The notes beneath the pieces are model-generated. The model had not been told where the DNA came from and did not search any database. It worked only from the letters and a program-made list of their open reading frames with translations. From NCBI GenBank assembly GCA_963846575.1, contig CAWJWJ010000001.1, positions 1,152,001-1,216,000 on the forward strand: a stretch of DNA of 64,000 nucleotides, in the 5' to 3' direction. Each line of letters starts with the position of its first letter. The first letter of the stretch is position 1. The position numbers and the translations under genes are program-made. Below, piece by piece: positions 18,506 through 63,752 of this stretch. Source of the DNA: an uncultured Nitrospiraceae bacterium (GTDB taxonomy: Bacteria; Nitrospirota; Nitrospiria; Nitrospirales; Nitrospiraceae).

Positions 18506-18537
18506 GGCCCGCTCCTTCTTCCCGCCGTCCGGCCCGG

Positions 18538-47220: not shown

Positions 47221-47241
47221 CCGGGGCAGGTGAATCCCGCG

Positions 47242-47271
47242 TTGACGGTTCCCCAATCACTTTGTTAACCT
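47242..47271 (+). promoter_or_regulatory. Putative sigma70 promoter for the RAPP-leader/TonB locus
   Basis: TTGACG (47242-47247), 18-nt spacer, extended -10 TGnTAACCT (47263-47271), 27 nt before leader ATG 47299. Confidence 0.5.
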
Positions 47272-47298
47272 GCCACCAGACCATCCGGTTCATTTTCT

Positions 47299-47604
47299 AT
47301 GCGACACACGAGCTTCAGAAGCTTCATCTGGATCCTGGCCTGCGTGGTCATTGTCCTGCTGGCCATGACGACCGGCAGTGCGGTGGCGCATGAACTCCAA
47401 CATGCCGCGCATCACAACGCTGCGATGCATGGAACGGGCATTTGCGCCTGGATGTGTGCCACTGCCGGAACGCACGTCGCGACTCCTGTAGACGGGACGC
47501 ATGTCTTCGGAGCGGTCAGTCATTTCCCGATTGACGTGTTCCAGGCGTCTGTCATTCAACCATTGGCTCTCGTCCAACCCCGCGCTCCCCCTGTCTGCTC
47601 CTAA
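47299..47604 (+). CDS. DUF2946/CruR/CutF-like leader protein 1 (His-rich, CAWMC, C-terminal RAPP)
   Basis: N-terminal hydrophobic segment, HELQHAAHH, ICAWMC, QPRAPPVCS*. Confidence 0.8.
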   Translation: MRHTSFRSFIWILACVVIVLLAMTTGSAVAHELQHAAHHNAAMHGTGICAWMCATAGTHVATPVDGTHVFGAVSHFPIDVFQASVIQPLALVQPRAPPVCS

Positions 47605-47732
47605 ACCCAGGCCGCCTGGGACCGTTTCGCTCTACGACGCAACACTGAGAGATCGTCAAAAGTCTGTGGCGTGGGAACTTGCGTGCCGGTGCGTAGTCCC
47701 TGTTCCGAACCGCCGACTTACGGAGACAATCC

Positions 47733-49004
47733 ATGTTTTTGGTCCGTGACTTCCGCACTGCCGTGACTGTTGTGGTGGGACTGCTCGCGCTGGGCGGTTC
47801 GGCCAGCCTCGCCTCCGCCGACGGTGAGCACCAGGCCGCCATCATACTGGAGAAACCATTCGCGCTGGTCCAGTCGACCGCCGCGTTGTCTCCCCCCAGT
47901 CTCCGGTTCACCCGCGCCGGGCTGTTGCATGCGGCCTGGGTGGAGAAAGGTGGCCTGCAGGGAGAGGTCAAGACTGCCGAGGTGGTAAACGGAAAGCCGG
48001 TAGCTTCCCCGGTTCAGGCGAGTCAGGCCGGGAGGGGGCCGGAAACCGTGCATCAATCTCCGGGATTTGCCATCGGTTCGGACGGCGCCCGGTTCGTCAC
48101 CTGGTCCGCCGGCAACAACACTCCCGGGGCGCTGTTCGCGTCGGATCTTCAGCTTGCCCGCGCGACGGACGCGCAGGCGTTTGCGCCTCCGATACAGGTG
48201 AATGACGACAACTTGGCCATTTCGCATACGTTTGAAAGCCTGTCCGTAGGGAAGGGCGGCGAAATTTACATGGCCTGGCTGGACGGACGGAATAAGGATC
48301 GAAGCGGCGCCAGCGCGATGTTCGCCTGCTCTCAGGACGGCGGGCTTACGGTCGGCAAGAACGTGGTGATCGACGGGATGGCCTGCCCCTGTTGCCGCCC
48401 GATGGTAGCCCAGGCGCCGGACGGATCGCTGTGGGTGGCCTGGCGCAAAACCTTTGAAGGGAATGTGCGGGACATCGTCGTGGCCCGCTCGACCGATCAG
48501 GGACACACGTTTACTCCGCCCAGCATTGTACGCCGGGACGGATGGGTGTTCGACGCCTGTCCGCATCGCGGCCCCTCCATCGGCTTCGACCGGACGGGAC
48601 GGATGTATATCGGATGGTACACGGAGGGCAAGGACGAACAGCCTCGGCTCTACATGGCCACCTCGGATGATCGGGGCGCGACGTTTTCAACGCCGGTGGC
48701 CCTGCATTCCGCGGTGACCTCGCTGCCGGACAACCTGCATCTGGCGGTCCACCCCGATGGCCAGGTCGCGGCGGTGTGGGAAGAAGTCACCGGAGTTCGG
48801 AAACGCGTCGTCATGCGCTTGTCCACGGATCGTGGACAGACTTTCGGGCCGATGCTCACGTTGAGCGCCGGGCCCAAGGCCGAACATCCCACGGTCGTCA
48901 TCCATGACAGCGGGAAGGTTGCGATCGGGTGGACGGAACATGCGTTTCCGCACAACAAGCTCATCGTGCAACAGGGGCAAGTGAATCCAGTGGCAGGGCG
49001 GTAG
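47733..49004 (+). CDS. Exported BNR/Asp-box (sialidase-like) beta-propeller protein with CPCC and CPHRGP motifs
   Basis: Signal peptide; S-x-D-x-G-x-T-F Asp-boxes (STDQGHTF, SDDRGATF, STDRGQTF). Confidence 0.85.
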   Translation: MFLVRDFRTAVTVVVGLLALGGSASLASADGEHQAAIILEKPFALVQSTAALSPPSLRFTRAGLLHAAWVEKGGLQGEVKTAEVVNGKPVASPVQASQAGRGPETVHQSPGFAIGSDGARFVTWSAGNNTPGALFASDLQLARATDAQAFAPPIQVNDDNLAISHTFESLSVGKGGEIYMAWLDGRNKDRSGASAMFACSQDGGLTVGKNVVIDGMACPCCRPMVAQAPDGSLWVAWRKTFEGNVRDIVVARSTDQGHTFTPPSIVRRDGWVFDACPHRGPSIGFDRTGRMYIGWYTEGKDEQPRLYMATSDDRGATFSTPVALHSAVTSLPDNLHLAVHPDGQVAAVWEEVTGVRKRVVMRLSTDRGQTFGPMLTLSAGPKAEHPTVVIHDSGKVAIGWTEHAFPHNKLIVQQGQVNPVAGR

Positions 49005-49051
49005 GGCGAACAAGCAGAACCATCCCTTTTGGAAGAGCAAGTGGAGGAGTC

Positions 49052-49510
49052 ATGAAGGCGCAGGCGAATCATTCGGCAGGGTGGGGCGCGGTCTGTGGAA
49101 CGGTGTTGCTGGCCTGGTGGTTAGGGGTCCCCGTCGTTTCGGCAGCCGACACGAAGGGCGAGAAGACGTTTCAGATCGTCGTGACCGACCAGCAGGGCAT
49201 CGAGACCGAACTCAAGAACGGTGTTTTTTATTGGGAAGAAAAATTGAGTGAAACCTCGTTTGTGCCCCATGAGTTGAAGCATCTGCCGGCGAAACGGGGT
49301 ACGGCCACGGTGAATATCAAGTTTGACCAGATCAAGCAGATCGACATCAAGCCCGGGGCCGACAAGACGTCGCCGACCATGACCGTGACCCTGGCCAACG
49401 GCAAGAACGGGGATTTTGCGCCTGCGGTGAACGGGAGCTTCAAGGGCGAATCAGATTTCGGACAAGTCGAAGTGCCTGTCGATTCGATTGCCAAGGCCGT
49501 TTTTAAGTAG
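49052..49510 (+). CDS. Exported hypothetical beta-rich protein
   Basis: SD GGAGGAG; signal peptide ending VSA-AD. Confidence 0.7.
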   Translation: MKAQANHSAGWGAVCGTVLLAWWLGVPVVSAADTKGEKTFQIVVTDQQGIETELKNGVFYWEEKLSETSFVPHELKHLPAKRGTATVNIKFDQIKQIDIKPGADKTSPTMTVTLANGKNGDFAPAVNGSFKGESDFGQVEVPVDSIAKAVFK

Positions 49511-49547
49511 TCGTGGCAGCGACGCATCGTTCGAAAGGATGCAACTG

Positions 49548-50731
49548 ATGGAGAATGTGCTCGGGGCGAGATCGTGGCAGTCGAAGCAGTCCGTAACGGG
49601 GTGGGGGGCATCGCTCGTCCTGCATGTCTGCCTTGCGCTGGCCGCGTTGGTTCTCCTGCCGAAAATGGCTGTGGTAGTGGAGCAGCAGCCCTTCACCTGG
49701 GACGTGGCTTTGGTTGAAGCTCCGCACGAAGTGGTGCGCCCGGCGGAACCGGCTCCGGCGCCGGTGGTTCAGCCACCCGCCCCGAAACAGGCCAAGCGTC
49801 AGCCGGTCCGGGCGGTCGAGCCGCCGCCCCAGCCCGTCACGCGGCCGGTGCAAACCCGGGTCGCACCGCAGCCGGTGCAGCGGGAGGTGCAGGCGGTCGT
49901 CGAGACGCCCCGGCCCGTAGATGAGATTCAGTCGCCGCAGGAAGTCGTTCGCGTGCAGCCCAAGCAGCTCTCCGCGCAGGAGATTCAGAAAACCGAACCG
50001 CTGATGCAGGCGGAGACGCCAGCAGAGGTCAAGCGAGAGGTTGCGGCGGCGGTCGAGCAGGCGGTGGTGGAGTCGGCGCCTGTGGCGGCTCAGACCTATG
50101 AGACGCAACCGGTCGTCAGCGCTCAGAAGATTGTCGAGATGAGTTCCCAGCCGGGTAATGAATCCACTGTGTCCGCGATGGTGGAGACGACTCCCCAGCC
50201 GGTTGTCACTGAGAGAGCGCCGGTCGAACGAGCCGCACCGGTCGACGTGCCGGTGGTTGAACCGGTTCAGGCAAGTCCCCCCCGACCGTTGCCCGGTCGG
50301 TAGAGGCAGGCCCGACAGCCGCCCCTGAGCCGGTGCCGGCACCGCCTGCACCGACGGCCGAGCCGACCACGCAACCGGATCCGGCCACACAGCAGGAACA
50401 TCAGGTCGTGGCCAGCGTGGCACCGAAAGGCGGGCCCAAGGCGGATTACAAATGGCTGGCCGAATCGTTGCACCGACGCATCATTGAATTGCGGCATTAT
50501 CCCAGCACGGCACGCCTGAATGGCTGGGAGGGAAAAGTCGTGTTGAAGGTCTCGATCCGTCACGACGGGCAGCTCAAGGATGTTGAAGTGGTGAAAAGTT
50601 CAGGGCATGACTCGCTGGATCAAGCGGCGATGGAAGCCGTGCGGCGGGCCTGTCCCCTTCATATGAAACACGAATTGACGGCTCCGATGGTGGTGCTGCA
50701 CCTGCCGGTCAGTTATAGCTTGAATCGGTAG
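49548..50731 (+). CDS. tonB: TonB energy transducer, frameshifted in a C7 run at 50277-50283
   Basis: TM with SxxxH (ASLVLHV), Pro/Glu/Val-rich linker; second frame carries TonB_C (YPSTARLNGWEGKVVL...VVKSSGHDSLDQAAMEAV). One extra C joins the two frames. Confidence 0.85.
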
Positions 50732-50780
50732 TCCACCATGATCGGATAGGATCTCCTGAGTCCGTCACAGGGAGAGCGGT

Positions 50781-52061
50781 ATGCGGATGAAACATGCTGC
50801 GAGAGCTGCCTGTGGGATCCTGGCGCTGTGCCTGGTTGTGGCGAGCCCCTTCGAAAGGACGCAGGCCGAACCGGGGCTGCCGTACGAACTCGGCCAGAAG
50901 TTCGTCACCGACCACAAGGTAAAAAGCCTGGTGGGACCGTCGGTGAAGATCGACGAGCAAGGGTTTGTCTCATTGGCCTGGATGGAAGAAGAGAAGGACG
51001 TGCGATCGGTGCTGTACGCCCGCAGCACTTCGCCAGGCGGACCAATGGGATCGCCGGTTCCCATCAATCGCCCTGACGACGTGCCCTATTGGAGACAGGA
51101 AGCGCCGGCCTTGGCTCTGGAGGGGGATGAGATCTATGTGACGTGGGGATTGACGCATCCCAAGCTGACCCCGCAGCAGCCGCTTGCAACCGAGTTGCGC
51201 CTGAGCCGATCGACCGACGGCGGACGTTCGTTTCAGCCGTCGGTGCTCGTGAACGATGATCCGGGCGTCATTCAACATACCTTCGATGCCGTGCATCGCG
51301 ACCGCGAAGGGCGGTTGCACCTCTCCTGGATCGATGGACGCGACGGGAAGAAGGAGCCGGGGACCTATGTGGCCCGATCGCTGGATCGGGGGCGGACCGT
51401 CACGAAGAATCTCAAGGTGGATGAGGGCACCTGCGTCTGTTGCCGGACGGCGGTCACCAGCGGTCCTGACGGCATGGTCTATGTGGCATGGCGAAAAATT
51501 TACGACGGGAATGTCCGTGAAACCGTCGTGGCGCGTTCCACCGATCACGGCGAGACGTTCGAGGCGCCCGTCATCGTCGGACAGGATCACTGGGTTTTTC
51601 CGGCCTGCCCGCATCGACCGGCCTCCATGGGAGTGGATCGAGAGGGGCGGTTGTATGTGGTCTGGTACACCGAAGGCACCGATGAAATTCCCGCCGTTTA
51701 CATGGCCTTTTCCGACGATCGCGGGCGCACCTTTTCGACCAAGCGAAAACTGAACCGTGCCGCCAACACCTTTCCCGACCATCCGCAGATTGCGGTCGAC
51801 CCGCAGGGACGGCTGGTCGTGGTCTGGGAGGAGCAGGCGCCGGTCAAGCGAGATGTGGTGATGAGTGTCTCAATCGATCGGGGAGCCACGTTTACCGCGC
51901 CGCAGAAAGTAAACGAGAAAAAAAGTCAGACCCCTGTGGTCGCGGTCAATGCCGAGGGGCTCTTCGCACTGGCCTGGATGGAACATGGCATGCCCGGTCA
52001 CAAGATCGTGACGCAGACGCTGAGGATGCCGTTTGCCGACCTGGCGACGGGATCGAAATAG
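50781..52061 (+). CDS. Second exported BNR/Asp-box beta-propeller protein with CVCC and CPHRP motifs
   Basis: Signal peptide; Asp-boxes STDGGRSF, STDHGETF, SDDRGRTF; clear paralog of 47733-49004. Confidence 0.85.
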   Translation: MRMKHAARAACGILALCLVVASPFERTQAEPGLPYELGQKFVTDHKVKSLVGPSVKIDEQGFVSLAWMEEEKDVRSVLYARSTSPGGPMGSPVPINRPDDVPYWRQEAPALALEGDEIYVTWGLTHPKLTPQQPLATELRLSRSTDGGRSFQPSVLVNDDPGVIQHTFDAVHRDREGRLHLSWIDGRDGKKEPGTYVARSLDRGRTVTKNLKVDEGTCVCCRTAVTSGPDGMVYVAWRKIYDGNVRETVVARSTDHGETFEAPVIVGQDHWVFPACPHRPASMGVDREGRLYVVWYTEGTDEIPAVYMAFSDDRGRTFSTKRKLNRAANTFPDHPQIAVDPQGRLVVVWEEQAPVKRDVVMSVSIDRGATFTAPQKVNEKKSQTPVVAVNAEGLFALAWMEHGMPGHKIVTQTLRMPFADLATGSK

Positions 52062-52080
52062 CGGGCTCGATAGGGGACTC

Positions 52081-52611
52081 ATGACGTTCACCCTCAAAAG
52101 CGGACTTGTCCTGTCGGCTGCGCTCTGGCTGGCGGCAAGCGTCGCCTGGGCAGACGATCGACTGGCGGCGATGAAAATGTCGCGGGTGCCACAGGGGACC
52201 GTCGCCGTTCCGTTCGAGTTGAGGAGTCTGGACGGGCAGTCCATCCAACTCGCGGATCTGAAGGGGAAGGTCGTCCTGGTAAATTTCTGGGCCACCTGGT
52301 GCGGGCCCTGCAAGGAAGAAATGCCGGCTTTCGAACGGCTTCGGCAGAAGCTGGATCCCGAGCGGTTTGCCCTGCTCACGATCACGACCGATCTGCAGCA
52401 GGATGGCATCAGACATTTTCTGGCGAATCTGCAGGTGCAGCTTCCGGTCCTGTTCGACGAACAGCAGGACGTGTCACAGGCCTATCTAGTGCGTGCATTA
52501 CCGACCACGGTGCTCATAGATCGACAGGGGGTGCTGGTGGGCCGAGCAGTCGGACCGCGTGAGTGGGACGCTCCGCAGGCCGTTCAGTTGCTGCAGGGTT
52601 TCATGCAATGA
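52081..52611 (+). CDS. Exported TlpA/ResA-family thiol-disulfide oxidoreductase
   Basis: LVNFWATWCGPCKEEMP, LPTTVLIDRQG; signal peptide. Confidence 0.92.
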   Translation: MTFTLKSGLVLSAALWLAASVAWADDRLAAMKMSRVPQGTVAVPFELRSLDGQSIQLADLKGKVVLVNFWATWCGPCKEEMPAFERLRQKLDPERFALLTITTDLQQDGIRHFLANLQVQLPVLFDEQQDVSQAYLVRALPTTVLIDRQGVLVGRAVGPREWDAPQAVQLLQGFMQ

Positions 52612-52928
52612 GTGACGGAAGAAAACCCTTCATCGGTCTGGCGGCCTTGCTGGCCGGGTCCTATCTGATCCTGTCCGTGTTGTCGTTGGCCTGCTCGGTC
52701 GAACATCTCCAATCGCAGACATCAGCTCATCACCATGGTGGGACCCTGTCCCATTCCGGTTTCTGTGCCTGGGCCTGTCAGGTCAATCCTACGTCTGATG
52801 CCGGGCCTTCCGCCCTGGTGCTCCACCCGCTGTCGATGGTCGCGCTCTTCGTCGAGACCAGCCACACGATTTTGACAGGCGGCACAGGATATCGTGCTGC
52901 CTCACGTGCGCCCCCCGTTCAGTCCTAA
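52608..52928 (+). CDS. DUF2946/CruR/CutF-like leader protein 2 (His-rich, CAWAC, C-terminal RAPP)
   Basis: ATGA overlap with the tlpA-like stop; hydrophobic segment, SAHHHGGTLSH, FCAWAC, SRAPPVQS*. Confidence 0.8.
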   Translation: MSDGRKPFIGLAALLAGSYLILSVLSLACSVEHLQSQTSAHHHGGTLSHSGFCAWACQVNPTSDAGPSALVLHPLSMVALFVETSHTILTGGTGYRAASRAPPVQS

Positions 52929-53036
52929 TTCCATTCCATATTGCTAGGCGGGCCGGCTCCTTTTCTTGCCTTGGGCACAGGGACGAGAAGGGCCGGTTCT
53001 TGTGGTCGTGTGTCCGGTTTTGCCAGGAGGATGTGT

Positions 53037-55364
53037 ATGCGGCTTCGTCATGATCTTTTTCCAATTCAAAAAATGGTGTGTTGCTGGGCGATCGTAATGG
53101 GGCTGACCAGCGCCGGGTCCCTCGCGCGTGCGCAAGAGGAGTCTCCCGCCGGTTCGGTCGTGGAACAAGGCGGGCGGGAGCGTGAATTGCGGGACCAGTT
53201 GCAAAGGATCCTGCGGGAACTGGATGAGTTGCATCAGCCGCAGCCGGGAGGTGCCGCGGTCGTGTCTCCTCAACCGGAAGTCGTACAGGAGACGCCGGAG
53301 GGGCAGGCTCCGGTGCCCGTCCCGCATTACGAACTGTCGGACGTCAGCATCGTCAGTGAACGGATCCAGCGGCGTCCCGAAGGGATCACCCTGTCCGCCA
53401 CGGACCCGTCCGAAACCGAGTCCCAGCCAACCAGGACGCTCAAGGAATCCATGGAGTCGTTGCCCGGCGTCGTGCTCAGGCAGGCCAATGGCCCGCGAGA
53501 CTTCAGTATCTCCATTCGCGGGTCGGGGGTGAAAACGACATTCGCCGTGCGGGATATCAAGATGTACGAGGACGGGTTCATTCAGACCCAGTCCGACGGC
53601 TTGTCGCGGCTGGACATCCATGATCCCTGGTTCATGCGCACGGTGGAGGTCCTTCGAGGCGCATCATCCTCGCTCTACGACAACTACGCCCTCGGGGGCA
53701 TGGTCCATTTTCGCACCCGCCGCGGCAGTGACATCAACGGCTTCGAGTCGTTCTTCAACGGCGGATCGTACGGTTATCAGAAATATGCCTTTGCCGTAGG
53801 CCGGCAGTACAGCAACGTCGATGTGTCGCTCTTCGGGAGCCACGTTGTGGAGGACGGATTCATCCGCAATAGCAACTACAGCACGCAAACGATGAATTTT
53901 AACTTCCGGGTCAAGGTGGACGACAAGCAGAACCTCTATTTCAAGGCGATCACCAACTGGCTCGATAGCCGCGTGCCGACGCGTCTGACCATCAATCAAT
54001 TCAATTCCGATCCCCGGCAGGCCGGCGGCATCAGCAACGCGACGAATGCCGTCTTGCTGGCGCAGCGCCGACTGGACCGGCGCAACATCATCGGCGGAAT
54101 GTACGAGCGCCAGATCGATGCCAATACCGTCCTCACGATGGAAGCCGACTACGACGTGAAGGACATCAACCAGACCTTCACGCAGATCACCGACAACGTC
54201 AATCCGAACTACAAACATTACACCGATTTACGGCACGACGGGCGGCTGTTCGACATGCCGTTACGGAGTTATGTCGGCTTCTTCGTCAACCAGATGGAGC
54301 AGGAAGGGAACACCTTCAATAATCTGCAGGACTTCTTCGGCACGCGCGGGACCCTGGCGCAGAACAACCGTGGGACGATCAGAAACATCGGCGGGCGCTT
54401 CAGGGAGGAATTGGAATTCGTGCCCAAGTGGACCCTCGCCGCGGGCCTTGGTTTTGAGCAATCGCAACTGAGCGTGCAGACGATCAGCTACTCGGCCGGG
54501 GCCGTCAACGGCAGGGCGAATGCCGACCGGAGCTTCTCCAACTGGGCGCCGGAAGTGTCCATCACCTGGAAGCCGGCCGAAGGCTATCGGTATTGGACCC
54601 GCGCGTCAACCGGCTATGCAATCCCCGGGTTCAGCAACCTGCTGACCAATCCCTTTACCGGGCTGGCCGGCACGAACTTCGACCTGAAACCGCAAAAGAA
54701 CCTGAACGTGGAACTTGGTACGGAATCGCGCCTGCATAAGACGCTGACGGTCCAATTAGTGGGATTCGTCACCTTCGTGAAGGATGAAATCATCAGCCAA
54801 GTGGTCTCGAACACCGGTGGCACCGCCGCCATCAATGCCGATTCCTCGCAATACCGCGGAGTCGAGCTGTTTTATGACTGGCGGCCCCTGGACGGGCTGC
54901 GCCTGTCCGGCGCCTACACCCACATCGACGCCCGCTACATCAATTTCAGCGACAAGTTTCTGTCGGGGGGCGTGCCGACGGCCTTCGTGCGGGACGGCAA
55001 GATGGTGCCGAACGTGCCGACCGACGTGCTCAATTTCAAGGAAGCCTACGACCATGCCGGGAGCGGCTGGGGCGGGTGGGTGGAAACCAATTATATGAAC
55101 AGCTACTTCCTCAACAACAACAACACCGTGGGCATCCCCGCCTATTGGATCGTCAACGTCAATGTGCACAAGAACGTGGAGTTCCCGAACAACCGGTGGA
55201 TCCGGTTTGCCAAGTTCTTCGCCGAGTTGGACAACATCGCCGACAAGAAGTACGCGGCGTCGGGCAACGTGGTTGCGGACAGCACCGCCGATGCGAACAA
55301 GACCCTGTTCTTTGCCGGTTACGGGCGCGCCTTCTATGCCGGTGTGACATTGGGACTGTTTTAA
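53037..55364 (+). CDS. TonB-dependent receptor 1
   Basis: Plug (LPGV...ISIRGSG, VEVLRGASSSLY), beta-barrel, DNIADKKY, C-terminal Phe; SD AGGAGG before ATG 53037. Confidence 0.93.
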   Translation: MRLRHDLFPIQKMVCCWAIVMGLTSAGSLARAQEESPAGSVVEQGGRERELRDQLQRILRELDELHQPQPGGAAVVSPQPEVVQETPEGQAPVPVPHYELSDVSIVSERIQRRPEGITLSATDPSETESQPTRTLKESMESLPGVVLRQANGPRDFSISIRGSGVKTTFAVRDIKMYEDGFIQTQSDGLSRLDIHDPWFMRTVEVLRGASSSLYDNYALGGMVHFRTRRGSDINGFESFFNGGSYGYQKYAFAVGRQYSNVDVSLFGSHVVEDGFIRNSNYSTQTMNFNFRVKVDDKQNLYFKAITNWLDSRVPTRLTINQFNSDPRQAGGISNATNAVLLAQRRLDRRNIIGGMYERQIDANTVLTMEADYDVKDINQTFTQITDNVNPNYKHYTDLRHDGRLFDMPLRSYVGFFVNQMEQEGNTFNNLQDFFGTRGTLAQNNRGTIRNIGGRFREELEFVPKWTLAAGLGFEQSQLSVQTISYSAGAVNGRANADRSFSNWAPEVSITWKPAEGYRYWTRASTGYAIPGFSNLLTNPFTGLAGTNFDLKPQKNLNVELGTESRLHKTLTVQLVGFVTFVKDEIISQVVSNTGGTAAINADSSQYRGVELFYDWRPLDGLRLSGAYTHIDARYINFSDKFLSGGVPTAFVRDGKMVPNVPTDVLNFKEAYDHAGSGWGGWVETNYMNSYFLNNNNTVGIPAYWIVNVNVHKNVEFPNNRWIRFAKFFAELDNIADKKYAASGNVVADSTADANKTLFFAGYGRAFYAGVTLGLF

Positions 55365-55429
55365 CCTCAGTGCGCGCGCGGCACTCCATCTGCGAGCCGG
55401 GCGCACATGTACTCAAGGAGGAGATGGCC

Positions 55430-55624
55430 ATGAACAAACAGCTCTTGCGGGTGGGAGAAGCGGCGGATGTGTTGGCCGTGAGCCGGTGGACGATCTATCG
55501 ATGGGTTGAAGAAGGACGGCTGGAAGGAACCAAGATCGGGCGCGGCAGCTTGCGGGTGTTCCGGGCCTCGCTGGAGAAATTGGTGCAGAACAACAGAACT
55601 CAGGAATTGAAACTCACGACGTGA
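55430..55624 (+). CDS. Small excisionase-like helix-turn-helix (HTH_17/MerR-type) DNA-binding protein
   Basis: LLRVGEAADVLAVSRWTIYRWVEEGRLEGTKIG; SD AAGGAGGAG. Confidence 0.85.
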   Translation: MNKQLLRVGEAADVLAVSRWTIYRWVEEGRLEGTKIGRGSLRVFRASLEKLVQNNRTQELKLTT

Positions 55625-57045
55625 CCGTGGTGCGGCAAAGGGAAATGATGAGACTCGTCGTAATTCTATGGGCCCTGGTTTTGTCCGGTTGTGCCGGCAG
55701 CCAGGGTGCCGGTCTGCATGGTGCGGAGCCGGACTCGCGCGCTGCGCAGCACGCGTTCGTCAACGGGCGTTGGTTTGACGGCAATGAGTTTCAAGCCGCC
55801 ACCTGGTATGCGGTTCAGGGGCGTCTGACCCGCCAGCGGCCCGATGGCCCGGTGGGAACGGTTGACCTCTCCGGTCGATTTATCGTGCCCCCGTTCGGCG
55901 AGGCCCACAATCACAATGTCGAGGGCACGTGGAATGTGGACACCGTCGCGGAACGATATCTCCACGACGGAGTCTTCTACGTGAAAAATCCGAACAACGT
56001 ACGGGAATTCGCCCTGCAGGTCCGGGGTCGCGTCAATGTGCCGGGAGGCATTGACGCGACCTTCGCCCATGCCGGCCTCACAGGGAAGGACGGGCATCCC
56101 ATCGCGTTGTACGAAGATGTTCTGCGGGTGAGCCGCTATAGAGACGTCATCGGGCCGGGGTCCCGGGGATGGTTTGAAAATCGGGCCTATATCATCGTCG
56201 AGACCGACGCCGACGTGGACGAGAAATGGGCGTTGATCACAAGCGGTCAGCCGGACTTTCTCAAGGTGTACCTGGTTCGTTCCGAGGACGACGAAGCACA
56301 TCGGCTCCCTGAGGGGTCGCCCGCCCGCAGGGGTCTGCATCCGCGCCTCGTGCCGCACATTGTCGGCAAAGCCCATGCGGCCGGTTTGCAGGTCACAGCG
56401 CATGTCGAAACGGCTGCCGACTTCCGCTCCGCGGTTCAGTCCGGCGTCGATGAAATTGCCCATGTGCCCGGATGGCTGGTGAAGAGCGCGGGTGATGTGG
56501 CACGCGCCCGTTTGACCGAAGCCGATGCCAGGTCGGCTCGCGAACGGAACGTCCGGGTGGTGACCACGACCGTGGCGGGACATGCGATGCCGACCGCCGA
56601 TGCCCGACATTCCGATTCGCAGCATGAGGCGCCTGCGCCGCAGCATTCCGGACATGCTGAGCCGGCGCTGGACGAGTCGGCTGGAACAGTGCTGAAGGAC
56701 AATCTTTCGCTGTTGCACCGAAGTGGGGTGCGGTTGGCGGTCGGGAGTGACCATGCGGACACGTCGCTGGCCGAGGCCCTGCACCTGCATTCGTTCGGGA
56801 TTTTCGACAACCGCACGTTGCTGAAGATGTGGTGCGAGAGCACCCCCGCCGCCATTTTTCCAGGGCGAAAGATCGGGCGGTTCGAGGAAGGGTACGAAGC
56901 CAGTTTTCTGGCGCTTGCCGGTAATCCCCTCGATGATTTTAGCCAGGTGCGGAGCATCACGCATCGCGTGAAGCAGGGTCGGGTGCTGGACGGGCATTTC
57001 GCTTCTGCCGGAGACGCTGTTACACCCGCACCGCACGCGCACTAA
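55621..57045 (+). CDS. Amidohydrolase-superfamily lipoprotein
   Basis: Lipobox VLSG-C (start may be 55645); PPFGEAHNH, LKVY, VTAH, EIAH, GSD, GRFEEGYEASFLAL.GNPL. Confidence 0.85.
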   Translation: MTVVRQREMMRLVVILWALVLSGCAGSQGAGLHGAEPDSRAAQHAFVNGRWFDGNEFQAATWYAVQGRLTRQRPDGPVGTVDLSGRFIVPPFGEAHNHNVEGTWNVDTVAERYLHDGVFYVKNPNNVREFALQVRGRVNVPGGIDATFAHAGLTGKDGHPIALYEDVLRVSRYRDVIGPGSRGWFENRAYIIVETDADVDEKWALITSGQPDFLKVYLVRSEDDEAHRLPEGSPARRGLHPRLVPHIVGKAHAAGLQVTAHVETAADFRSAVQSGVDEIAHVPGWLVKSAGDVARARLTEADARSARERNVRVVTTTVAGHAMPTADARHSDSQHEAPAPQHSGHAEPALDESAGTVLKDNLSLLHRSGVRLAVGSDHADTSLAEALHLHSFGIFDNRTLLKMWCESTPAAIFPGRKIGRFEEGYEASFLALAGNPLDDFSQVRSITHRVKQGRVLDGHFASAGDAVTPAPHAH

Positions 57046-57104
57046 TACGGAATGTATCTCACGATCCTTTTTGACACCATGCATGTGGGCTCAAGGAGAA
57101 CACG

Positions 57105-59366
57105 ATGAAACGTTTACAGCATTGGGGAAGTATCTCGGTCTGCTGGGGGCTGATGTTGGTATGTGCGATGGACCTCTCTGCCTCCGTGGTCTTCGCGGTG
57201 GAGGAACCGTTAGAGCAGGACTCTCCCGTCGTCCTTGTGGAGCCGGTCGAGGTGCAGGGAAAACGGATCGAAAACATCGGGGACGTGAAAAAGGAACTGG
57301 CAAGGCGGCCGGGCAGCAACATCCTGATCGAAGAGAAACAAATTGCCGAGACGACAACCGTGAACCTTCAAGAAGTCTTGCAGTTCGCGCCCGGCGTGCG
57401 GTTCCAGTCCCGGTTCGGCGCGGATGAAGGCCAATTCCAGATCCGCGGCACCTCGTTACGCAATAATTTCCATCATCGCGGCATCAACATTCTGATCAAC
57501 GGGATCTTCTTCGGCGATGCCGACGGGTTTTCCGATTTCGAATCGATCGACCTCATGGCCTACGAACGTATCGAAATCTACAAGGGGGCGAACGCGTTGC
57601 GTTATGGCGCGAACAGCATCGGCGGGGCAATCAATTTCGTGCCGCGGACCGGCTATAGTGCCTCGACCCTGCAGATGCGGATGCTCGGCGGGAGCTTCGG
57701 CCTGGTCAGCGGCCAGGTCTCCAGCGGAAAAGTCCTGGAACCGTTCAAGGTCGGCAGCATGAGCGCGACGATGGACTACTACATCAGCGTGTCCGGCAAC
57801 CGGCAGGACGGGTATCAAGATAATAGCCAACAGGCTCGCGAGCGCGTCAACGCCAATATCGGCATTCAACTCGGTAACCATCAGGAGATCAGGGCCTATT
57901 TCCTTCAGGCGAACGTCGCCGAACGGATCCCCGGTTCCTTGACCAACGCGCAGCTGTTTCAGAACCCGCAGCAGGTAGGGGGACAAAGCCCTCCCGGCAC
58001 CCCTCCGTTCTTTGCCTGCAACCTGAACAACCAAGTCTGTAAATACGGACGCTACTATAACCTGCAGCGGATCGGCATCGCCTACCACAACGAGTTCGCG
58101 CCCAACCAATACTTCGAGATCATTCCCTACTTCTCGAATCAGTATGTGGACCATCCGATTTTTCAGACCATCAGGCAGGAGAACAACAATGTCGGCGGCG
58201 AGTTCCGGTATGTGAATTCCAATACCCTGTTCGGAAAGAACAACTCCTTCGTAATGGGATTTCAGCCACGCTACGGCCATCAACGTCAGCAGCGGTTCGT
58301 GAACAACAACGGAAACATCGGGGCCCTGACGCAAAACTACACGGCCAAGACGACGTATTTCGGGGCCTACGCCGAAGACGCGTTCGATGCCACGAAGGAT
58401 TTCACCATCGTGCTCGGCGGCCGCTGGGACTATACGGGACGCCAGGCGACGGTGGACAATTTCGGACCGGCCGGCAGTCCGTTCAATCCCACCACGCCGT
58501 CGACGCTGACCGGCACGAACCGGCCGCTGCAACATTTCGATGCGATCAATCCGAAAATCGGCTTTGTGTATCGCACCACCACGACCTCGCAGTTGTACTT
58601 TAATGCCAGCCGGGCCTATGAAGCGCCGCTTAATCTGGAGCTGCTCTCGTCGGTGAATGCGAACGGCACGCCGAACACAGGGTTCCTGAATCTGGACGCC
58701 CAGCGGGCCTGGCAGTTGGAGTTGGGCCACCGGGGGACCTCGGCCGACCGGCGCTACAACTGGGACGTCACGGTTTACAACCTCGAGATGCAGAAAGAGA
58801 TCCTGGCGTCGATCATCAACAACCAGGGCACATTCCAAAATGCCAATGGGACGCGCCATACCGGGGTCGAGGCCGGCGGCGGCATGGTTGTGAAGAAGGG
58901 CCTGTTCGCGCAGGGCGGGGCAGGACGGGAAGACAGCCTGCAAACGCGCGTGGCCTATACCTGGTCGCGTTTCAAGTTCACCGATGATGTGCGGGCCGGC
59001 GGAGTTGCGGGGCCGAATGTGCTGATTGCCAAAGATGGCAATACCGTCGCCGGTGCGCCGGAGCATAGTCTGAACATGGAAGTTCGATACGATCACCCGG
59101 GCGGGTGGTGGGTCGCGCCGAATATTGAGTGGTCGCCGTCCGGATTTTATACGAACTATCAGAACACGGTCAAAAATCCGTCCTATGCGCTCGTCAATTT
59201 GCGGTCGGGATGGTACATCGACGAGCATTGGACGCTCTTTGCCGAGGGACGCAATTTGACGAACAAGACCTATGCAGGCGCGGTGGTGGTCAACGATCAA
59301 TTCAATCGTTTTGCCAACCCGGGATTGGGCATCAGCGCCTTCGGCGGCGTGGAGTACAAGTTCTAA
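57105..59366 (+). CDS. TonB-dependent receptor 2
   Basis: TonB-box-like EPVEVQG, APGV, IRG, IEIYKGANALRYG..SIGGAINF, RNLTNKTY, C-terminal EYKF. Confidence 0.95.
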   Translation: MKRLQHWGSISVCWGLMLVCAMDLSASVVFAVEEPLEQDSPVVLVEPVEVQGKRIENIGDVKKELARRPGSNILIEEKQIAETTTVNLQEVLQFAPGVRFQSRFGADEGQFQIRGTSLRNNFHHRGINILINGIFFGDADGFSDFESIDLMAYERIEIYKGANALRYGANSIGGAINFVPRTGYSASTLQMRMLGGSFGLVSGQVSSGKVLEPFKVGSMSATMDYYISVSGNRQDGYQDNSQQARERVNANIGIQLGNHQEIRAYFLQANVAERIPGSLTNAQLFQNPQQVGGQSPPGTPPFFACNLNNQVCKYGRYYNLQRIGIAYHNEFAPNQYFEIIPYFSNQYVDHPIFQTIRQENNNVGGEFRYVNSNTLFGKNNSFVMGFQPRYGHQRQQRFVNNNGNIGALTQNYTAKTTYFGAYAEDAFDATKDFTIVLGGRWDYTGRQATVDNFGPAGSPFNPTTPSTLTGTNRPLQHFDAINPKIGFVYRTTTTSQLYFNASRAYEAPLNLELLSSVNANGTPNTGFLNLDAQRAWQLELGHRGTSADRRYNWDVTVYNLEMQKEILASIINNQGTFQNANGTRHTGVEAGGGMVVKKGLFAQGGAGREDSLQTRVAYTWSRFKFTDDVRAGGVAGPNVLIAKDGNTVAGAPEHSLNMEVRYDHPGGWWVAPNIEWSPSGFYTNYQNTVKNPSYALVNLRSGWYIDEHWTLFAEGRNLTNKTYAGAVVVNDQFNRFANPGLGISAFGGVEYKF

Positions 59367-59559
59367 CCGTCGGCTACGATTTCTATTGAGGACTCCCTCT
59401 GGGTCGGGCGCGTCCGATGGGCCGGGCCCGGGCTGCGCCTTGATTGGCGAGCCGGCTCGAGAGTGGGCGATCGCCGATTCAACATGTGATAAGTTATTTG
59501 GGTGCGGCAGCCTTCGATGGGGCCGCCCCGGTCACTTCGGGAACCAACCGCATCGGCTC

Positions 59560-61524
59560 ATGAACGGATTGTTGACCATCCTACTGTTGCTGTGGAGCCT
59601 TGCACCGGCCCATGCGGAGTCAGGCACGCTGCCGCTCCCTGGCGAGGCCTTTGTCGCGCTTCCCCGTATCTCCTCCATTGAACTGTCCCCCTCCGGCAAA
59701 CATCTCGCAGCAGTCAGGAACCGTGGCGGCAACACGGAACTCCTGACACAAACCGTAACAGGTGAGGATGCGCACGTCGCCGTCATCACCGACAATCGGG
59801 AATTTGTCATCACCTGGTTCCGGTGGGTGAATGACGAACGTCTGCTGGTCGGTACCAGATTTACGGACCCGGGGGCCGGGCTCGACTCGCAAGAAACACG
59901 GCTGTTATCGGTTAACCGGGACGGAACACAACAGAACCCCAATCTGTTCAAGCAGACTACCTTGTCCTCTATTTTTGGAAAGAAACATCTTCCTCAACTC
60001 CAGGATCGTCTCGTGGAAATTCTGCCGGGTGATCCCCGGCAGGTGCTGATCGCGCTCGACATGGAGCATCCCCTGTCGCCGGATGTGTACGCGGTGGATG
60101 TGTACTCCGGTGAGCGGCAACTGATACAGGCGAATCCGGGGGCAGAGCCAGGCCCCCGCACGGTGCTGCAGTGGATTGCCGATCGTACGGGACAGGTGCG
60201 GGTTGGAGTCGGCCAATTTCACACCACGGTTCGGGTCGTCTACCGGGCTCCGGACTCCATCATCTGGCGGGACCTGGCCGAATATGATCTCGCCAAGGAA
60301 ACCGGCCTGATTCCCCTGGCCTTCGACGCCGACCCTGCCTGGCTCTATGTCCGGGATCAACACCGTGGCCGGGCCGCGATCTTTAAGATGAACCTCGCCG
60401 ATCGGAGCGTTGACCGCATACTCGTGGCCTCGGATCCGAAGTTCGATCTCGCGGGAGAATTGGTCTACGCGCCTTGGAAGCGAAAGGTCGTCGGCGTGAG
60501 GTACGGCGAAGAAGACGCCCGGGTGTTGTTTTGGGACTTCGACGCGCAACGCCTCCAGGCCCGTATCGACCGGGCGATTCCGGGACGCGTCAACGTGATT
60601 CACAGCAGCAGTCACGACGGGCGCTTCCATATTGTGAAGTCGGGTGGTCCGGCCCAATCCCCGGACCATTACATCTTCGACGAGCGTGACGGTCGCATGA
60701 CATTGCTCGGTAGATCCTACCCCGATCTTGATGAGGACGAGCTGCGGGTTCCGAAAGCGGTTACGATCGTGGCGCGCGACGGGAAAGAGTTGCATGCCTC
60801 GTTGACCGTTCCCAGGAATCGAAATCCCGAAAAGCTATCCCTCATCGTGTTTCCCCATGGAGGGCCGGCATCGCACGAGCGGGATGCGTTTAATTACTGG
60901 ACCCAGTGGTTTGTGAGTCGGGGCTGGGCGGTGTTGCAGGTCGACTTCCGGGGATCCGAGGGGTACGGCGATGATTTTTTGCGGATCGGATTCCAGCGCT
61001 GGGGGCTGGAGATGCAGGACGATTTGACTGACAGTGCAGAGTGGGCGATTCATGCCGGCCACGCGAGCGCAGACCGGATGTGCGTGGTCGGGGCAGATTA
61101 TGGCGGCTATGCGGCCCTCATGGGAGCGGCCCAAACACCGGAGTTGTACCGCTGTGTCGTGAGTGTCGGCGGGGTCACCGACCTGCTGCAGATTGTGGGC
61201 GACCAGCGCTGGTATCTGAACCAGAAGCTCCTGGTCGAGTCGAAGATTACCTCCTGGTGGAACGATCGCGAGCGATTGCGGGACACTTCACCCGTGTTTC
61301 AAGCGAAGGACATACGGACACCGCTTCTCCTGATCCATGGGGCCATGGACCGCATCGTGCCGGTCTCCCACGGACGCGCCATGGCCGAAGCGCTGAGGGA
61401 CGCAAAGGTCACGACCTACCGCTATGTCGAACTTCCCCTGGCTGACCATGTCCTCAGTCGTGAGCAGGACCGCTTTCAGCTGTTTTCCGACCTGGAACAG
61501 TTCCTGAGTCAATACCTGAACTAA
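59560..61524 (+). CDS. Exported S9 (prolyl oligopeptidase/acylaminoacyl peptidase)-like hydrolase with Asp in the nucleophile position
   Basis: Signal peptide (AHA-E), propeller, PHGGP, DFRGSEGYG, GADYGGY, HGAMDRIV, ADH. Confidence 0.85.
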   Translation: MNGLLTILLLLWSLAPAHAESGTLPLPGEAFVALPRISSIELSPSGKHLAAVRNRGGNTELLTQTVTGEDAHVAVITDNREFVITWFRWVNDERLLVGTRFTDPGAGLDSQETRLLSVNRDGTQQNPNLFKQTTLSSIFGKKHLPQLQDRLVEILPGDPRQVLIALDMEHPLSPDVYAVDVYSGERQLIQANPGAEPGPRTVLQWIADRTGQVRVGVGQFHTTVRVVYRAPDSIIWRDLAEYDLAKETGLIPLAFDADPAWLYVRDQHRGRAAIFKMNLADRSVDRILVASDPKFDLAGELVYAPWKRKVVGVRYGEEDARVLFWDFDAQRLQARIDRAIPGRVNVIHSSSHDGRFHIVKSGGPAQSPDHYIFDERDGRMTLLGRSYPDLDEDELRVPKAVTIVARDGKELHASLTVPRNRNPEKLSLIVFPHGGPASHERDAFNYWTQWFVSRGWAVLQVDFRGSEGYGDDFLRIGFQRWGLEMQDDLTDSAEWAIHAGHASADRMCVVGADYGGYAALMGAAQTPELYRCVVSVGGVTDLLQIVGDQRWYLNQKLLVESKITSWWNDRERLRDTSPVFQAKDIRTPLLLIHGAMDRIVPVSHGRAMAEALRDAKVTTYRYVELPLADHVLSREQDRFQLFSDLEQFLSQYLN

Positions 61525-61624
61525 ATCGCAGTTTCGAGCGCTTCTGTAGCATCCATGAGCAGGCGTCGGTAGACAGGTATTCTGAAACGGAGTATTGAGT
61601 AGGGAGTTTGAACGGTAGCCTCTC

Positions 61625-61960
61625 ATGATTCAGCCATCACTCAAACAAACCTTGTCTCGCATCGCACTCGCCATGGCGGGGGTCTACTTCGTCCTGGCCA
61701 TGACCACGGCCGGCTGCCTCCTGGCCCACGCTGTGGCATCGTCGGGCGGTCACCACCAGCACTCCGGCACTGAGTCCCATTCGCTGCTGTGTTCCTGGGC
61801 CTGCCAGGCGACGTCGGATGCCGGGCCGATCAGTTATGGACCTGCCTCGGTCATGCGGGTCGATCAATTCAATGAGACTTCACCGCCTGACTCCATCATC
61901 AGCAGTGGAATCTCCTCATCCCTCCATGCTCGTGCTCCGCCGGTCCTCGCGAGGGGATAG
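61625..61960 (+). CDS. DUF2946/CruR/CutF-like leader protein 3 (His-rich, CSWAC, C-terminal RAPP)
   Basis: Hydrophobic segment, GGHHQHSGTESH, LCSWAC, HARAPPVLARG*. Confidence 0.8.
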   Translation: MIQPSLKQTLSRIALAMAGVYFVLAMTTAGCLLAHAVASSGGHHQHSGTESHSLLCSWACQATSDAGPISYGPASVMRVDQFNETSPPDSIISSGISSSLHARAPPVLARG

Positions 61961-62343
61961 TTCGGGCGGAGCGCACGTCGCTAACAATTCGCGGGGACAC
62001 TGAACACTGTCCCGTCACGGCAAATCTCCGGGCGGGAAGATGATCCGTCCCCTGATCCGCCACCTCCGGGCGTTCGGCCCGAGCTATCGACTTGAGACTG
62101 TGACCTGGTCGTCCGGGAGGACGCTGTCCTTCCTGTATCAGGGTGGAGCGGGTTGCTGTCAGAGAAGCACGCAATGATTGATGGGTCTATGAAACGATGA
62201 GACGATCACGACGGATCCTGGAGTTGTGCACCCTTCTCCAGGATCTGCCCTCCGGGGCGAGAGGGGCGGCCTCCCCCCTCACCCCGGCCCTTCGGGGAGA
62301 GGCGGCGCGATTCTGTCCATCGAGAGGTCACACAGGAAACCAT

Positions 62344-63546
62344 ATGATGCAACCTGGAAACAGCATGCGGAAGGAATCAGCTGGTCGGCCGGGTCGGAAG
62401 AGTGCGTTTGCAACGGTCTGTCTCTGTCTGGCGTTGTGCGTGGAATTCGAATGGCAGGGCACCGGCCGGGAGCTCTGGGCGGCGGAACAGGGCGGATGGT
62501 CGCTTCTGCTGGCCAACGGGACGCAGGCACGGGAGGAAGCGCGTTACGCCGAGGCCGAGCATCTGTTGGCACAGGCGCTGCGTGAAGCTGAGCAAGACGG
62601 GTCCGATTCCGGTCGGATCGCGACGGCTGCCAATAATCTGGGGCTGCTCTACCACGATCAAGGACGGCTCGCCGAGGCGCAGACCCTGTATGCGCGGGCC
62701 CTCGGCACCTGGGAAGCGCTCTATGGACCGGAGCATGAACAGGTCGCCGCAGCATTGAACAATCTGGCGGAAATCGCCCAGGCCGAGGGAGACTGGGTCA
62801 AGGCGGAGCCGTTGTATGAGCGGGTACTGGCAATCGAGCGTAACGTGTTGGGCGCGGCGCATCCCGACGTGGCGATCAGTCTCAACAACCTGGCCGAACT
62901 CTATCGGAAGCAAGGCCGTGATGCCGCGGCAGAATCCCTGTATCGCCTGGCGCTCACCCTCCTGGAGGAAGCCTACGGTGCCGAGCACCAGGAATTGGGA
63001 GCCGTGCTCAACAACCTGGCCGTTCTTTATAAAAGCCGGGGGTTATATGTGTGGGCGGAACCGCTGTATTTGCGGGCATTGGCGATACGCCGTGCTCGAT
63101 TCGGTGACGAGCATCCTGTGGTTGTCACGAGCTTGAACAATCTTGGCTGCCTGTATCACGCGGAAGGTCTCTATGCTTCCGCCCAACGGTCGTTCGATCA
63201 GGCCCTGGCCGTTTCAGAACGGGTGTCCGGTCCTCAGACCTCCTTGACGGGGACGATTGTCGGCAATATGGGGCTGCTCGCGGATGAACAGGGTCTGTTT
63301 ACCGAAGCCCAGCTCCTTTATCAGCGCGCGCTCGTGATCCAGCAACGGCAACTGGGACTCCACCATCCGCTGGTCGGGCTCTTGTTCGAGCGGTATGCGA
63401 GGGTGCTCGAGCGGGTGGGGCAACCGGTCGAGGCCGGGTTGTATGCCGCCCGGGCGGCATCGATTCGTGCCGGGTCGGGGGCACAGGCTTCGAGGAAGCA
63501 AGCCGCCGTCAACGAGGATCCGTCCGCGGGAGCATTTTCGCGATAA
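62344..63546 (+). CDS. TPR protein (kinesin-light-chain-like 42-aa repeats), probably exported; start uncertain
   Basis: Repeats of HP.VA.SLNNLA.LY..QG....AE.LY.RAL.I; hydrophobic N-terminal segment. Confidence 0.85.
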   Translation: MMQPGNSMRKESAGRPGRKSAFATVCLCLALCVEFEWQGTGRELWAAEQGGWSLLLANGTQAREEARYAEAEHLLAQALREAEQDGSDSGRIATAANNLGLLYHDQGRLAEAQTLYARALGTWEALYGPEHEQVAAALNNLAEIAQAEGDWVKAEPLYERVLAIERNVLGAAHPDVAISLNNLAELYRKQGRDAAAESLYRLALTLLEEAYGAEHQELGAVLNNLAVLYKSRGLYVWAEPLYLRALAIRRARFGDEHPVVVTSLNNLGCLYHAEGLYASAQRSFDQALAVSERVSGPQTSLTGTIVGNMGLLADEQGLFTEAQLLYQRALVIQQRQLGLHHPLVGLLFERYARVLERVGQPVEAGLYAARAASIRAGSGAQASRKQAAVNEDPSAGAFSR

Positions 63547-63722
63547 CGCGTCCGGTAGCGCGGGTGGGAGGTGCCTGCGCCATGTACCTCCGATCGGCCT
63601 CCGGTGACGGCAGCTGCCGCGGGTTGCGGACTCTGCCCTTCCTCCGGACGACGGTATCGTACCAGTGATCGGTGGACGGAGCTCGATGGTTGGACTGCGC
63701 TGACCACGCAGTGAGCTCCGAC

Positions 63723-63752
63723 GAGGGAAGCGTACACCCATGCGCTTCCCTC
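63723..63752. other. Strong GC-rich hairpin in a multi-hairpin intergenic region
   Basis: GAGGGAAGCG ... CGCTTCCCTC 10-bp perfect stem; no U-tract on either side. Confidence 0.45.

Follow-up and report, generated by a model that had tools for sequence, protein, structure and literature searches.

Why should a single TonB-dependent uptake locus carry three short reading frames that each end in a ribosome-arrest motif? The question is raised by the 64,000-nucleotide stretch of DNA analysed here (the window; positions 1,152,001 to 1,216,000 of contig CAWJWJ010000001.1, assembly GCA_963846575.1), which comes from an uncultured bacterium of the Nitrospiraceae. To our knowledge, copper uptake and rationing are poorly known in nitrite oxidisers and in comammox Nitrospira. 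From computations of genes, conservation, spacing, base composition, promoter distribution and hairpin covariation, we favour, at a probability of about one in two, the explanation that the frames are arrest leaders acting in series on the uptake of what is probably copper, in the manner of CruR (Bp2923), the DUF2946 (PF11162) leader of the cruR-crtA(bfrG)-crpH operon of Bordetella pertussis (PMC9426467). By analogy with CruR it is very probable that each is an arrest leader working in cis. The three frames, called leaders 1 to 3, and the promoter before the first are as follows; Arg-n is the position n residues before the arginine of the C-terminal motif.

47242-47271, + strand: sigma-70-like promoter, TTGACG-18-TAACCT with an extended -10 TG, directly before leader 1.
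47299-47604, + strand: leader 1, 101 residues, class A; CAWMC; ends RAPPVCS before the stop, RAPP at 47581-47592; His at Arg-51, Cys at Arg-46 and Arg-42; Arg is residue 95 (codon 47581).
52608-52928, + strand: leader 2, 106 residues, class B; CAWAC; ends RAPPVQS, RAPP at 52905-52916; extra Cys at Arg-71, His at Arg-51, Cys at Arg-47 and Arg-43; Arg is residue 100 (codon 52905).
61625-61960, + strand: leader 3, 111 residues, class B; CSWAC; ends RAPPVLARG, RAPP at 61931-61942; Arg is residue 103 (codon 61931).

A preliminary description of this DNA had given the coordinates, RAPP codons and common design of the three frames, and our translations agree with it exactly: each has a hydrophobic N-terminus, several histidines, a C-[AS]-W-[MA]-C motif and RAPPV three to five residues from the stop. 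The best 19-residue Kyte-Doolittle means are 2.4, 2.2 and 1.9 for leaders 1, 2 and 3, and an AVA-H signal-peptidase-like site was judged by eye in leader 1. Among 20,725 stop-to-stop frames of at least 85 residues in the 4.2-Mb genome, 27 end in RAPP or RGPP and 16 bear CxWxC (counted only 40-70 residues from the end, a rule that leaders 1-3 satisfy); three have both, vs 0.02 expected if the features were independent. Leaders 1 and 2 are coding, with a third-position bias in their differences from same-genus orthologs (238/176/359 at codon positions 1/2/3 for leader 1 against seven orthologs, 177/120/313 for leader 2 against six). The arrest motif is kept in homologs, as the arrest proposal presupposed: arginine and both prolines are invariant across 50 homologs of leader 2 found by sequence search, the named ones being Nitrospira hypothetical proteins. 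Pfam and NCBIfam searches returned nothing over cut-off for leaders 1-3, and a GbpA match of leader 3 was rejected as noise (21 bits vs 481). An AlphaFold model from the 50 leader-2 homologs had a mean pLDDT of 58 and was confident only in the N-terminal helix (residues 9-37).

A motif scan of 41 loci (40 fetched and the window), which required a RAPP-like end, a Cys pair and two His and set no fixed distance between them, gave 126 leaders with a tightly held spacing. From the second Cys to the Arg there are 41 residues in 66 of them and 42 in 56 (122 of 126 together; the exceptions have 40, 44, 54 and 77), and from the first Cys 45-46 residues in 122 of 126. This spacer length is kept although paralogs are about 20% identical; in the linker between Cys and Arg it is the length of 41-42 residues that is conserved and not the sequence. 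Leaders carry a His cluster with a median of 4-5 His, and when positions are simply anchored at the Arg, free of any alignment, a His occupies Arg-51 in 140 of 173 locus leaders; the corresponding 138 of 146 library representatives were found with the same profile, so that this second figure is partly circular. Two classes can be told apart, class A with Cys at Arg-46 and Arg-42 and class B with Cys at Arg-47 and Arg-43, a third Cys being present in 73 of 77 class B leaders. The C-terminal motif, itself part of the selection rule, is RAPP in 63, RGPP in 60 and RSPP in 3 of the 126. CruR has its CXXC at 90-93 and its arginine at 139, and its CXXC-RAPP spacing of 45 matters for regulation (PMC9426467); the annotated DUF2946 protein of Ralstonia wenshanensis has a His at Arg-51 and Cys at Arg-50 and Arg-47.

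The leaders are widespread in their own order. Matches to leader 1 occur in 140 of 151 family genomes, and a profile of 125 leaders matches all 42 other genomes of the family (2-9 matches each), all 18 of a second family of the order (1-5 each) and 7 of the 140 remaining genomes, or 68 of 201 with the own genome included. In the cultured Nitrospira defluvii (FP929003.1) the profile has 7 matches genome-wide, with 3 inside a 21-kb span at locus L092. Among 1.84 billion cluster representatives the profile finds 566 unnamed proteins at E<=0.001. Across the 125 aligned leaders Cys, Cys, Arg, Pro and Pro are invariant at a mean column identity of 21%, and a hydrophobic 19-mer of at least 1.6 is present in 95% of 172 leaders, export being judged by hydrophobicity only. 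By the same measure of a signal peptide, the leaders fit the rule set for CutF-like proteins (fewer than 150 residues, PP in the last 15, a signal peptide and a same-strand neighbour within 1000 nucleotides). A quick tree of 110 columns, with three divergent or truncated rows excluded and 61 of 120 inner branches open, groups the leaders broadly by class and target, many forks being weakly supported. Leaders and loci are related by descent and not independent, so that these counts overstate the number of events, which lessens their weight for our explanation.

Among the CruR/CutF (DUF2946-like) arrest leaders, these are best read as an unnamed branch from Nitrospirales that lies below the Pfam cut-off. 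DUF2946 is the most frequent Pfam match of the family (21 of 125 members at E<=0.05, best 1.3e-4). Two results speak against this kinship: leader 2 scores 16.1 bits where the PF11162 gathering cut-off is 23.7, with leaders 1 and 3 giving no match, and a comparison of the profile with the Ralstonia DUF2946 aligned only the RAPP end, at a probability of 18%. The preliminary description had proposed this model search; taken genome-wide, PF11162 gave nothing over cut-off. The CXXC of DUF2946 and CruR is not present either: of 173 locus leaders, 168 have at the 42/43 positions a CxWxC, whose two Cys are four residues apart. By the Pfam and CXXC tests the leaders are not members of DUF2946, and it is by inference that we credit them with a CruR-like way of working. 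The simplest reading of these positions would be that the leaders descend from DUF2946, having lost its first Cys and acquired another four residues further on, a reading drawn from two comparators, the Ralstonia DUF2946 and the published positions of CruR.

We consider it highly likely that leaders 1 and 2 stand in series on one mRNA, because a promoter was found only before leader 1 and because leader 2 overlaps the stop of the preceding gene, which encodes a TlpA/ResA-like thiol reductase; "first gene of the operon" is true of leader 1 and false of leader 2. Throughout the loci 34 of 35 first leaders have a sigma-70-like element ahead of them, vs 0 of 42 leaders after TlpA, 0 of 13 after a Cys-bearing barrel and 1 of 30 others, in a scoring (threshold 16, shuffle mean about 12) that is limited to sigma-70-like elements under our own weights and is to that extent a weakness of the argument. 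A stock scan that needs 9 of 12 matches does not list the promoter of leader 1; its yield of 3 promoter-like and 9 terminator-like sites is below that of shuffles, with none after leaders, so intrinsic termination is not supported. All 42 leaders preceded by TlpA start between -25 and +19 nucleotides from the TlpA stop, with an ATGA overlap in 19 (starts chosen by script).

The preliminary description had taken the locus for a cascade of metal-sensing leaders that separately tune their sub-operons. The spacing, the rut-like composition and structured intergenic regions described below and the similar Ralstonia module are in keeping with CruR/CutF-like RAPP leaders, several per locus, that gate an envelope metal-uptake cluster. 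Separate tuning did not hold up: the internal leaders have no sigma-70-like promoter of their own, and control would therefore be cumulative along one transcript. Nor is the triple arrangement special, since leader number varies family-wide: of the 41 loci, which were picked around leader matches and several of them for having more than one leader, 3 have one leader, 9 two, 18 three, 5 four, 5 five and 1 six. When loci were chosen blind to leaders, by centring on homologs of the second BNR-repeat protein of the window, 20 of the 22 loci that span 20 kb or more had at least two leaders. The targets comprise TonB-dependent receptors, the Cys-bearing barrel, TlpA, BNR proteins, a beta-propeller lipoprotein, HTH_17, HMA and cytochrome P460-like proteins, and each leader copy precedes a long intergenic region (gaps of about 90-160 nucleotides).

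The mRNA itself has features that would suit control by Rho. The last 78 nucleotides of the leaders have a median C/G ratio of 1.81 (above 1 in 98% of 121), vs 0.86 in 382 neighbouring genes, with C/G counts of 31/15, 27/20 and 30/19 in leaders 1, 2 and 3. In the last 20 codons of the linker, fourfold-degenerate sites have a C/G ratio of 1.53 vs 0.79 expected, with G at 398 vs 686, C at 607 vs 543 and T at 398 vs 184. The depletion of G is mostly a gain of T, and relaxed codon bias in a weakly translated gene could give the same, which takes something from the argument. The composition fits what has been mapped in cruR, a C>G bubble and a rut site (PMC9426467), though with more loss of G than gain of C; a Rho gene is present in the genome (Pfam model). 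After leader 2, three hairpins covary in 12 orthologs, with 12 pairs changed on both sides and 0 of 500 shuffles as high, in a structure derived from the same 12 sequences, which are kin. The consensus fold of the intergenic region after leader 1 is weak, and taken together such regions show no unusual stability (median z -0.8; 10 of 69 below -2). Rfam gave no match up to E 0.5 over 45800-64000, and we therefore see no known riboswitch there.

Taking CruR as the model, from which we infer stalling, metal binding, polarity and Rho termination, we propose the following. One promoter ahead of leader 1 would start a long transcript, and a ribosome translating the leader would stall at RAPP with the His/Cys site, 42-51 residues upstream of the Arg, just out of the exit tunnel, held at a set distance by a linker fixed in length and free in sequence. 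Given the tunnel's length, a site that lies 44-53 residues from the peptidyl-transferase centre has only just left it. In CruR and CutF the reach of the sensor site into the periplasm differs (10.1101/2025.02.05.636593). Without metal, the stalled ribosome would cover the C-rich, G-poor 3' end of the leader, a putative Rho loading site, and the uptake genes would be transcribed and translated; the same 3' end may also pair with the following gene's ribosome-binding site. A metal, most likely Cu(I), would bind the His/Cys site, whose folding would pull the chain free, so that the ribosome completes the leader and departs, and Rho terminates transcription within the structured intergenic region. 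That the stall means "on" is probable on the same analogy. Leader 2, translationally coupled to TlpA, would form with leader 1 a serial (AND-like) attenuator: because it lies behind leader 1 on the same transcript, the receptors behind it would need both leaders stalled, and with one promoter and serial leaders the effects would multiply along the transcript. Leader 3 would do likewise for a downstream module whose first gene has been lost in this genome. If true, this would go beyond what is known from CruR and CutF, one leader per operon, by placing arrest-peptide attenuators in series on one mRNA.

A further and more doubtful extension is a multi-tier attenuator, in which one constitutive promoter feeds up to six serial leaders of two classes (41- vs 42-residue ruler, different His/Cys sets) with their own targets kept over the family's history, each tier tripping at a different metal, concentration or compartment, to give graded transcript length with no transcription factor. 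If true, it would yield graded output of porin, TonB, reductase and receptor, and would imply that unannotated outer-membrane barrels and PqqU-like receptors in nitrite oxidisers carry metal.

Compared with known systems, the leaders resemble CruR in being small exported frames with a Cys pair, RAPP a few residues before the stop, a tightly fixed Cys-to-RAPP spacing, a C>G-rich 3' end, a long intergenic region, and, further downstream, genes for a TonB-dependent receptor and of AhpC/TSA type; when CruR arrests, the prolines of RAPP occupy the P and A sites (PMC12992588). They differ from it in having C-x-W-x-C instead of CXXC and a His cluster, in falling below the Pfam cut-off, and in that many are operon-internal and coupled to the previous gene, whereas cruR homologs are described in first position. 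Table S1 of PMC9426467 contains no Nitrospira; its first part gives two Bradyrhizobium strains with two DUF2946 entries each at near-consecutive accessions, a hint of two-leader loci outside Nitrospira. CutF of Rhodobacter capsulatus, for which 5,334 CutF-like proteins have been listed (10.1101/2022.11.11.516240 / PMC9973294), shares CxxxC, a Sec-type N-terminus, Pro-Pro near the C-terminus, a length below 150 residues and a same-strand neighbour within 1 kb. CutF, however, ends in PPP, and copper induces its stall, which unmasks the cutO ribosome-binding site for detoxification (10.1101/2025.02.05.636593), whereas the Nitrospira leaders have RAPP/RGPP, importer-like targets and no specific covariation that masks a Shine-Dalgarno (SD) sequence. 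The string "nitrospir" occurs neither in the text of 10.1101/2022.11.11.516240 nor in three small supplements of PMC9973294, which omit the full CutF-like list. With ApdA, ApdP, ApcA and SecM (RAPP/RAGP arrest peptides) the leaders share the RAPP arrest motif and an N-terminal localisation signal (PMC12992588); unlike these, which head sec/yidC genes, they have a His/Cys sensor site, and no same-strand sec or yidC gene lies directly downstream of them, the targets being BNR, receptor, barrel, TlpA and HTH genes. The secA of this region is on the opposite strand, divergent, and therefore cannot be a leader target. The operon of Ralstonia wenshanensis (CP076412.1), in the order DUF2946, TonB-dependent receptor, BNR and redoxin, has the same four kinds of gene and a BNR protein 27% identical to BNR2 with the same CxCC and CPH motifs, but it has one leader, in first position, a receptor only remotely related and a permuted gene order.

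New here are the His/CxWxC subfamily, which has no name, and the serial use of its members as internal genes lacking a promoter of their own. The CxWxC variant, of which the preliminary description knew no account in a triple arrangement, differs from the CXXC of CruR, but its CxxxC spacing is already in CutF. The class itself is known, because RAPP upstream open reading frames (uORFs) before TonB receptors have been reported as universal in Gram-negative bacteria (PMC12992588), and the leader class being common and already described limits the surprise; the uORF gene list of that paper may include these leaders. Several arrest leaders in a row behind one promoter seem undescribed. Literature searches, outside which most subscription papers lay, found no description of this leader family or of serial leaders, nothing on RAPP stalling with metal in Nitrospira, and no paper on this locus. 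The leaders mark candidate uptake genes of Nitrospira, and the family is a natural data set for a tunnel-length ruler, with 41-42 residues kept at about 20% identity.

The remaining features of the locus are these.

47605-47732, + strand: intergenic region after leader 1, 128 nucleotides, weakly conserved hairpins.
47733-49004, + strand: BNR-repeat protein 1 (BNR1), with CxCC and CPH motifs.
49052-49510, + strand: conserved exported hypothetical protein, start approximate, no Pfam or NCBIfam match.
49488-50731, + strand: TonB, frameshift-split at a C-run near 50270-50276.
50781-52061, + strand: BNR-repeat protein 2 (BNR2), 41% identical to BNR1 and 27% to the BNR protein of the Ralstonia DUF2946 operon; no relative found in the PDB.
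52033-52611, + strand: TlpA/ResA-like thiol reductase, its stop overlapping the start of leader 2 (ATGA).
52929-53036, + strand: intergenic region after leader 2, 108 nucleotides; pyrimidine run, covarying hairpins (main stem about 52953-52996), AGGAGG at 53025-53030.
53037-55364, + strand: TonB-dependent receptor 1, nearest named model PqqU/YncD, far below cut-off.
55418-55624, + strand: small HTH_17 protein.
55621-57045, + strand: exported amidohydrolase-family protein.
57105-59366, + strand: TonB-dependent receptor 2, 23% identical to receptor 1.
59272-61524, + strand: S9 prolyl-oligopeptidase-family protein between receptor 2 and leader 3 (limits of the reading frame; true start probably later).
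61961-62300, + strand: region after leader 3; the first ~130 nucleotides conserved, then the deletion of an HTH gene, then a ~90-nucleotide structured element.
62197-63546, + strand: TPR_12 protein, probable start 62344.

These neighbours of leaders 1-3 agree with those first assigned, the S9 peptidase being an addition. Leader 3 does precede a TPR protein, as described, but it is not the head of a third segment of the TonB operon. In loci L073, L076 and L018 its orthologs are followed by an HTH_17 gene, and L073 continues with a run of cytochrome P460-like, TPR and small-metal-binding-protein genes; in the window the HTH gene of the orthologous loci has been deleted, with its last four codons seemingly left at 62189-62200. 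Leader 3 might be a relic, or might continue to influence the TPR gene from a distance.

That the leaders sense a metal is likely by comparison with CruR-type systems, and, if they do, the metal is probably copper. The link to DUF2946 and the Ralstonia operon point this way, as do BNR homologs inside copper clusters on two Roseobacteraceae plasmids (Sulfitobacter and Phaeobacter; a Spirosoma region is less clear), and HMA, small metal-binding protein (SMBP) and YHS/HMBD heavy-metal P-type ATPase genes lie in or beside related clusters. In small genomes with a single leader, this leader precedes a Met/His-rich barrel with no TlpA beside it. Several facts pull away from copper: the receptors are not OprC-like, their nearest model being a PQQ transporter (PqqU/YncD); receptor 1 is 24% identical to the Ralstonia receptor over 211 residues; NikR and another receptor stand further downstream of the cluster; ESM clusters near leader 1 are automatically named cobalt transporter CbtB; and the leaders are tightly coupled to the thiol reductase TlpA.

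The NikR and CbtB findings, together with the His-rich site, would suit metal-sensing arrest leaders for Ni, Co or Zn, or for different metals in classes A and B. His-only CutF-like clusters adjoin Ni/Co genes (10.1101/2022.11.11.516240), and a Cys-lacking paralog in the same genome lies near CDF-like and COG0523-like genes (judged by eye). We nevertheless think this unlikely, given that both Cys are invariant, that Cys-rich CutF-like proteins mostly precede copper genes (10.1101/2022.11.11.516240), that the BNR homologs sit in copper clusters and that NikR lies outside the leader-gated segments.

Control might instead be purely translational, of the SecM/CutF type, with the Pro-Pro codons (CCUCC) masking the next ribosome-binding site and a stalled ribosome freeing it; the stall could then be metal-induced and the genes on with metal. 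A fourth helix after leader 2, in the consensus fold of the 12 orthologs, does pair CCUCC with the receptor gene's GGAGG. T is the last base of the first Pro codon in 74 of 122 leaders vs 104 of 351 Pro-Pro pairs in neighbouring genes, and in 41 of 69 free folds leader sequence is the pairing partner of the ribosome-binding site. The helix, however, has no compensatory change in the 12 orthologs, and leader-SD pairs are no stabler than cross-locus pairs of the same target class (-13.9 vs -13.7 kcal/mol; top tenth 6 of 73), so SD masking stays a lead only. Under a simulated stall the gain in SD accessibility exceeded 0.3 in only 14 of 69, the gaps are about 90-160 nucleotides and the targets are importer-like, all of which makes a purely translational switch improbable.

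TlpA stands directly before 42 of the 126 leaders, and this coupling bears on whether the same arrest leaders sense periplasmic thiol-redox or export state, a CxWxC disulfide (with the further Cys of class B) pulling the stall free and the coupled TlpA setting the redox. Invariant Cys pairs in the targets (BNR, barrel, beta-propeller), the DsbA-like and DegP genes behind the cluster and secA, called divergently upstream in 19 of 40 fetched loci, could all be so understood; a disulfide-release model has been proposed for CutF (10.1101/2025.02.05.636593), and RAPP uORFs before DsbA/thioredoxin genes have been reported (PMC12992588). A disulfide, however, needs neither the cluster of 4-5 His nor a fixed His at Arg-51, the linker is nearly Cys-free, and the single-leader genomes target a Met/His-rich barrel with no adjacent TlpA. 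We regard a redox signal as quite improbable; redox and metal readings are not mutually exclusive. Finally, ordinary secreted His/Cys metallochaperones with an incidental RAPP end would explain the export segment, the His/Cys cluster and a conserved helix around CxWxC (in the low-confidence model, pLDDT 58), but are very unlikely given a linker that keeps its length and not its sequence, the long intergenic region behind every copy, and RAPP/RGPP being among the most avoided tetrapeptides in Nitrospirota in the source data of PMC12992588.

In relatives, leaders often stand before outer-membrane barrels of two types, both candidate TonB-independent metal channels (L015:5219-6334 and L057:9100-10272): one with an invariant N-terminal CGxVSC, whose ESM cluster carries PF13557 in 24-32% of members, and one Met/His-rich with PF13557 over cut-off, the sole leader target in small-genome relatives. 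Small HTH_17 (excisionase-like) genes recur in these clusters, often directly after a receptor or leader (55418-55624; L073:5152-5445). The ~90-nucleotide structured element (about 62211-62300) is single here and repeated around HTH and cytochrome P460-like genes of orthologous loci (L073:5457-5543 and 6263-6348; also L018, L013, L023, L028, L050, L069, L070, L076 and L129); it has no Rfam match and is possibly an RNA element or an HTH_17 binding site.

Just past the window, G000:C1:1216307-1225753 encodes a conserved exported protein, a DsbA-like protein, a YHS/HMBD heavy-metal P-type ATPase, DegP, NikR and another TonB-dependent receptor, an order that recurs in many relatives. Upstream, secA (43204-45907, - strand) is split by a frameshift near 45167-45171, and relatives have an intact frame of ~905 residues; a 94%-identical related contig (run X2) has one extra C at 50276 in tonB. 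With the tonB shift sitting at a C-run, this suggests that the secA and tonB frameshifts are indel errors of long-read assembly and not pseudogenes. A fourth family member in the genome, G000:C2:2249056-2249379 (- strand), has a His cluster, C-x-W with no second Cys, and RAPP, and precedes a TonB-dependent receptor; with CDF-like and COG0523-like genes near it (judged by eye) it is perhaps a Zn version. A fifth and different leader-like frame, G000:C1:1008517-1008915 (+ strand), has CxxC near its N-terminus, ends GRGPPVLAS and lies before a receptor-like gene, and a homolog of it is found in locus L075 at 18460-18891.

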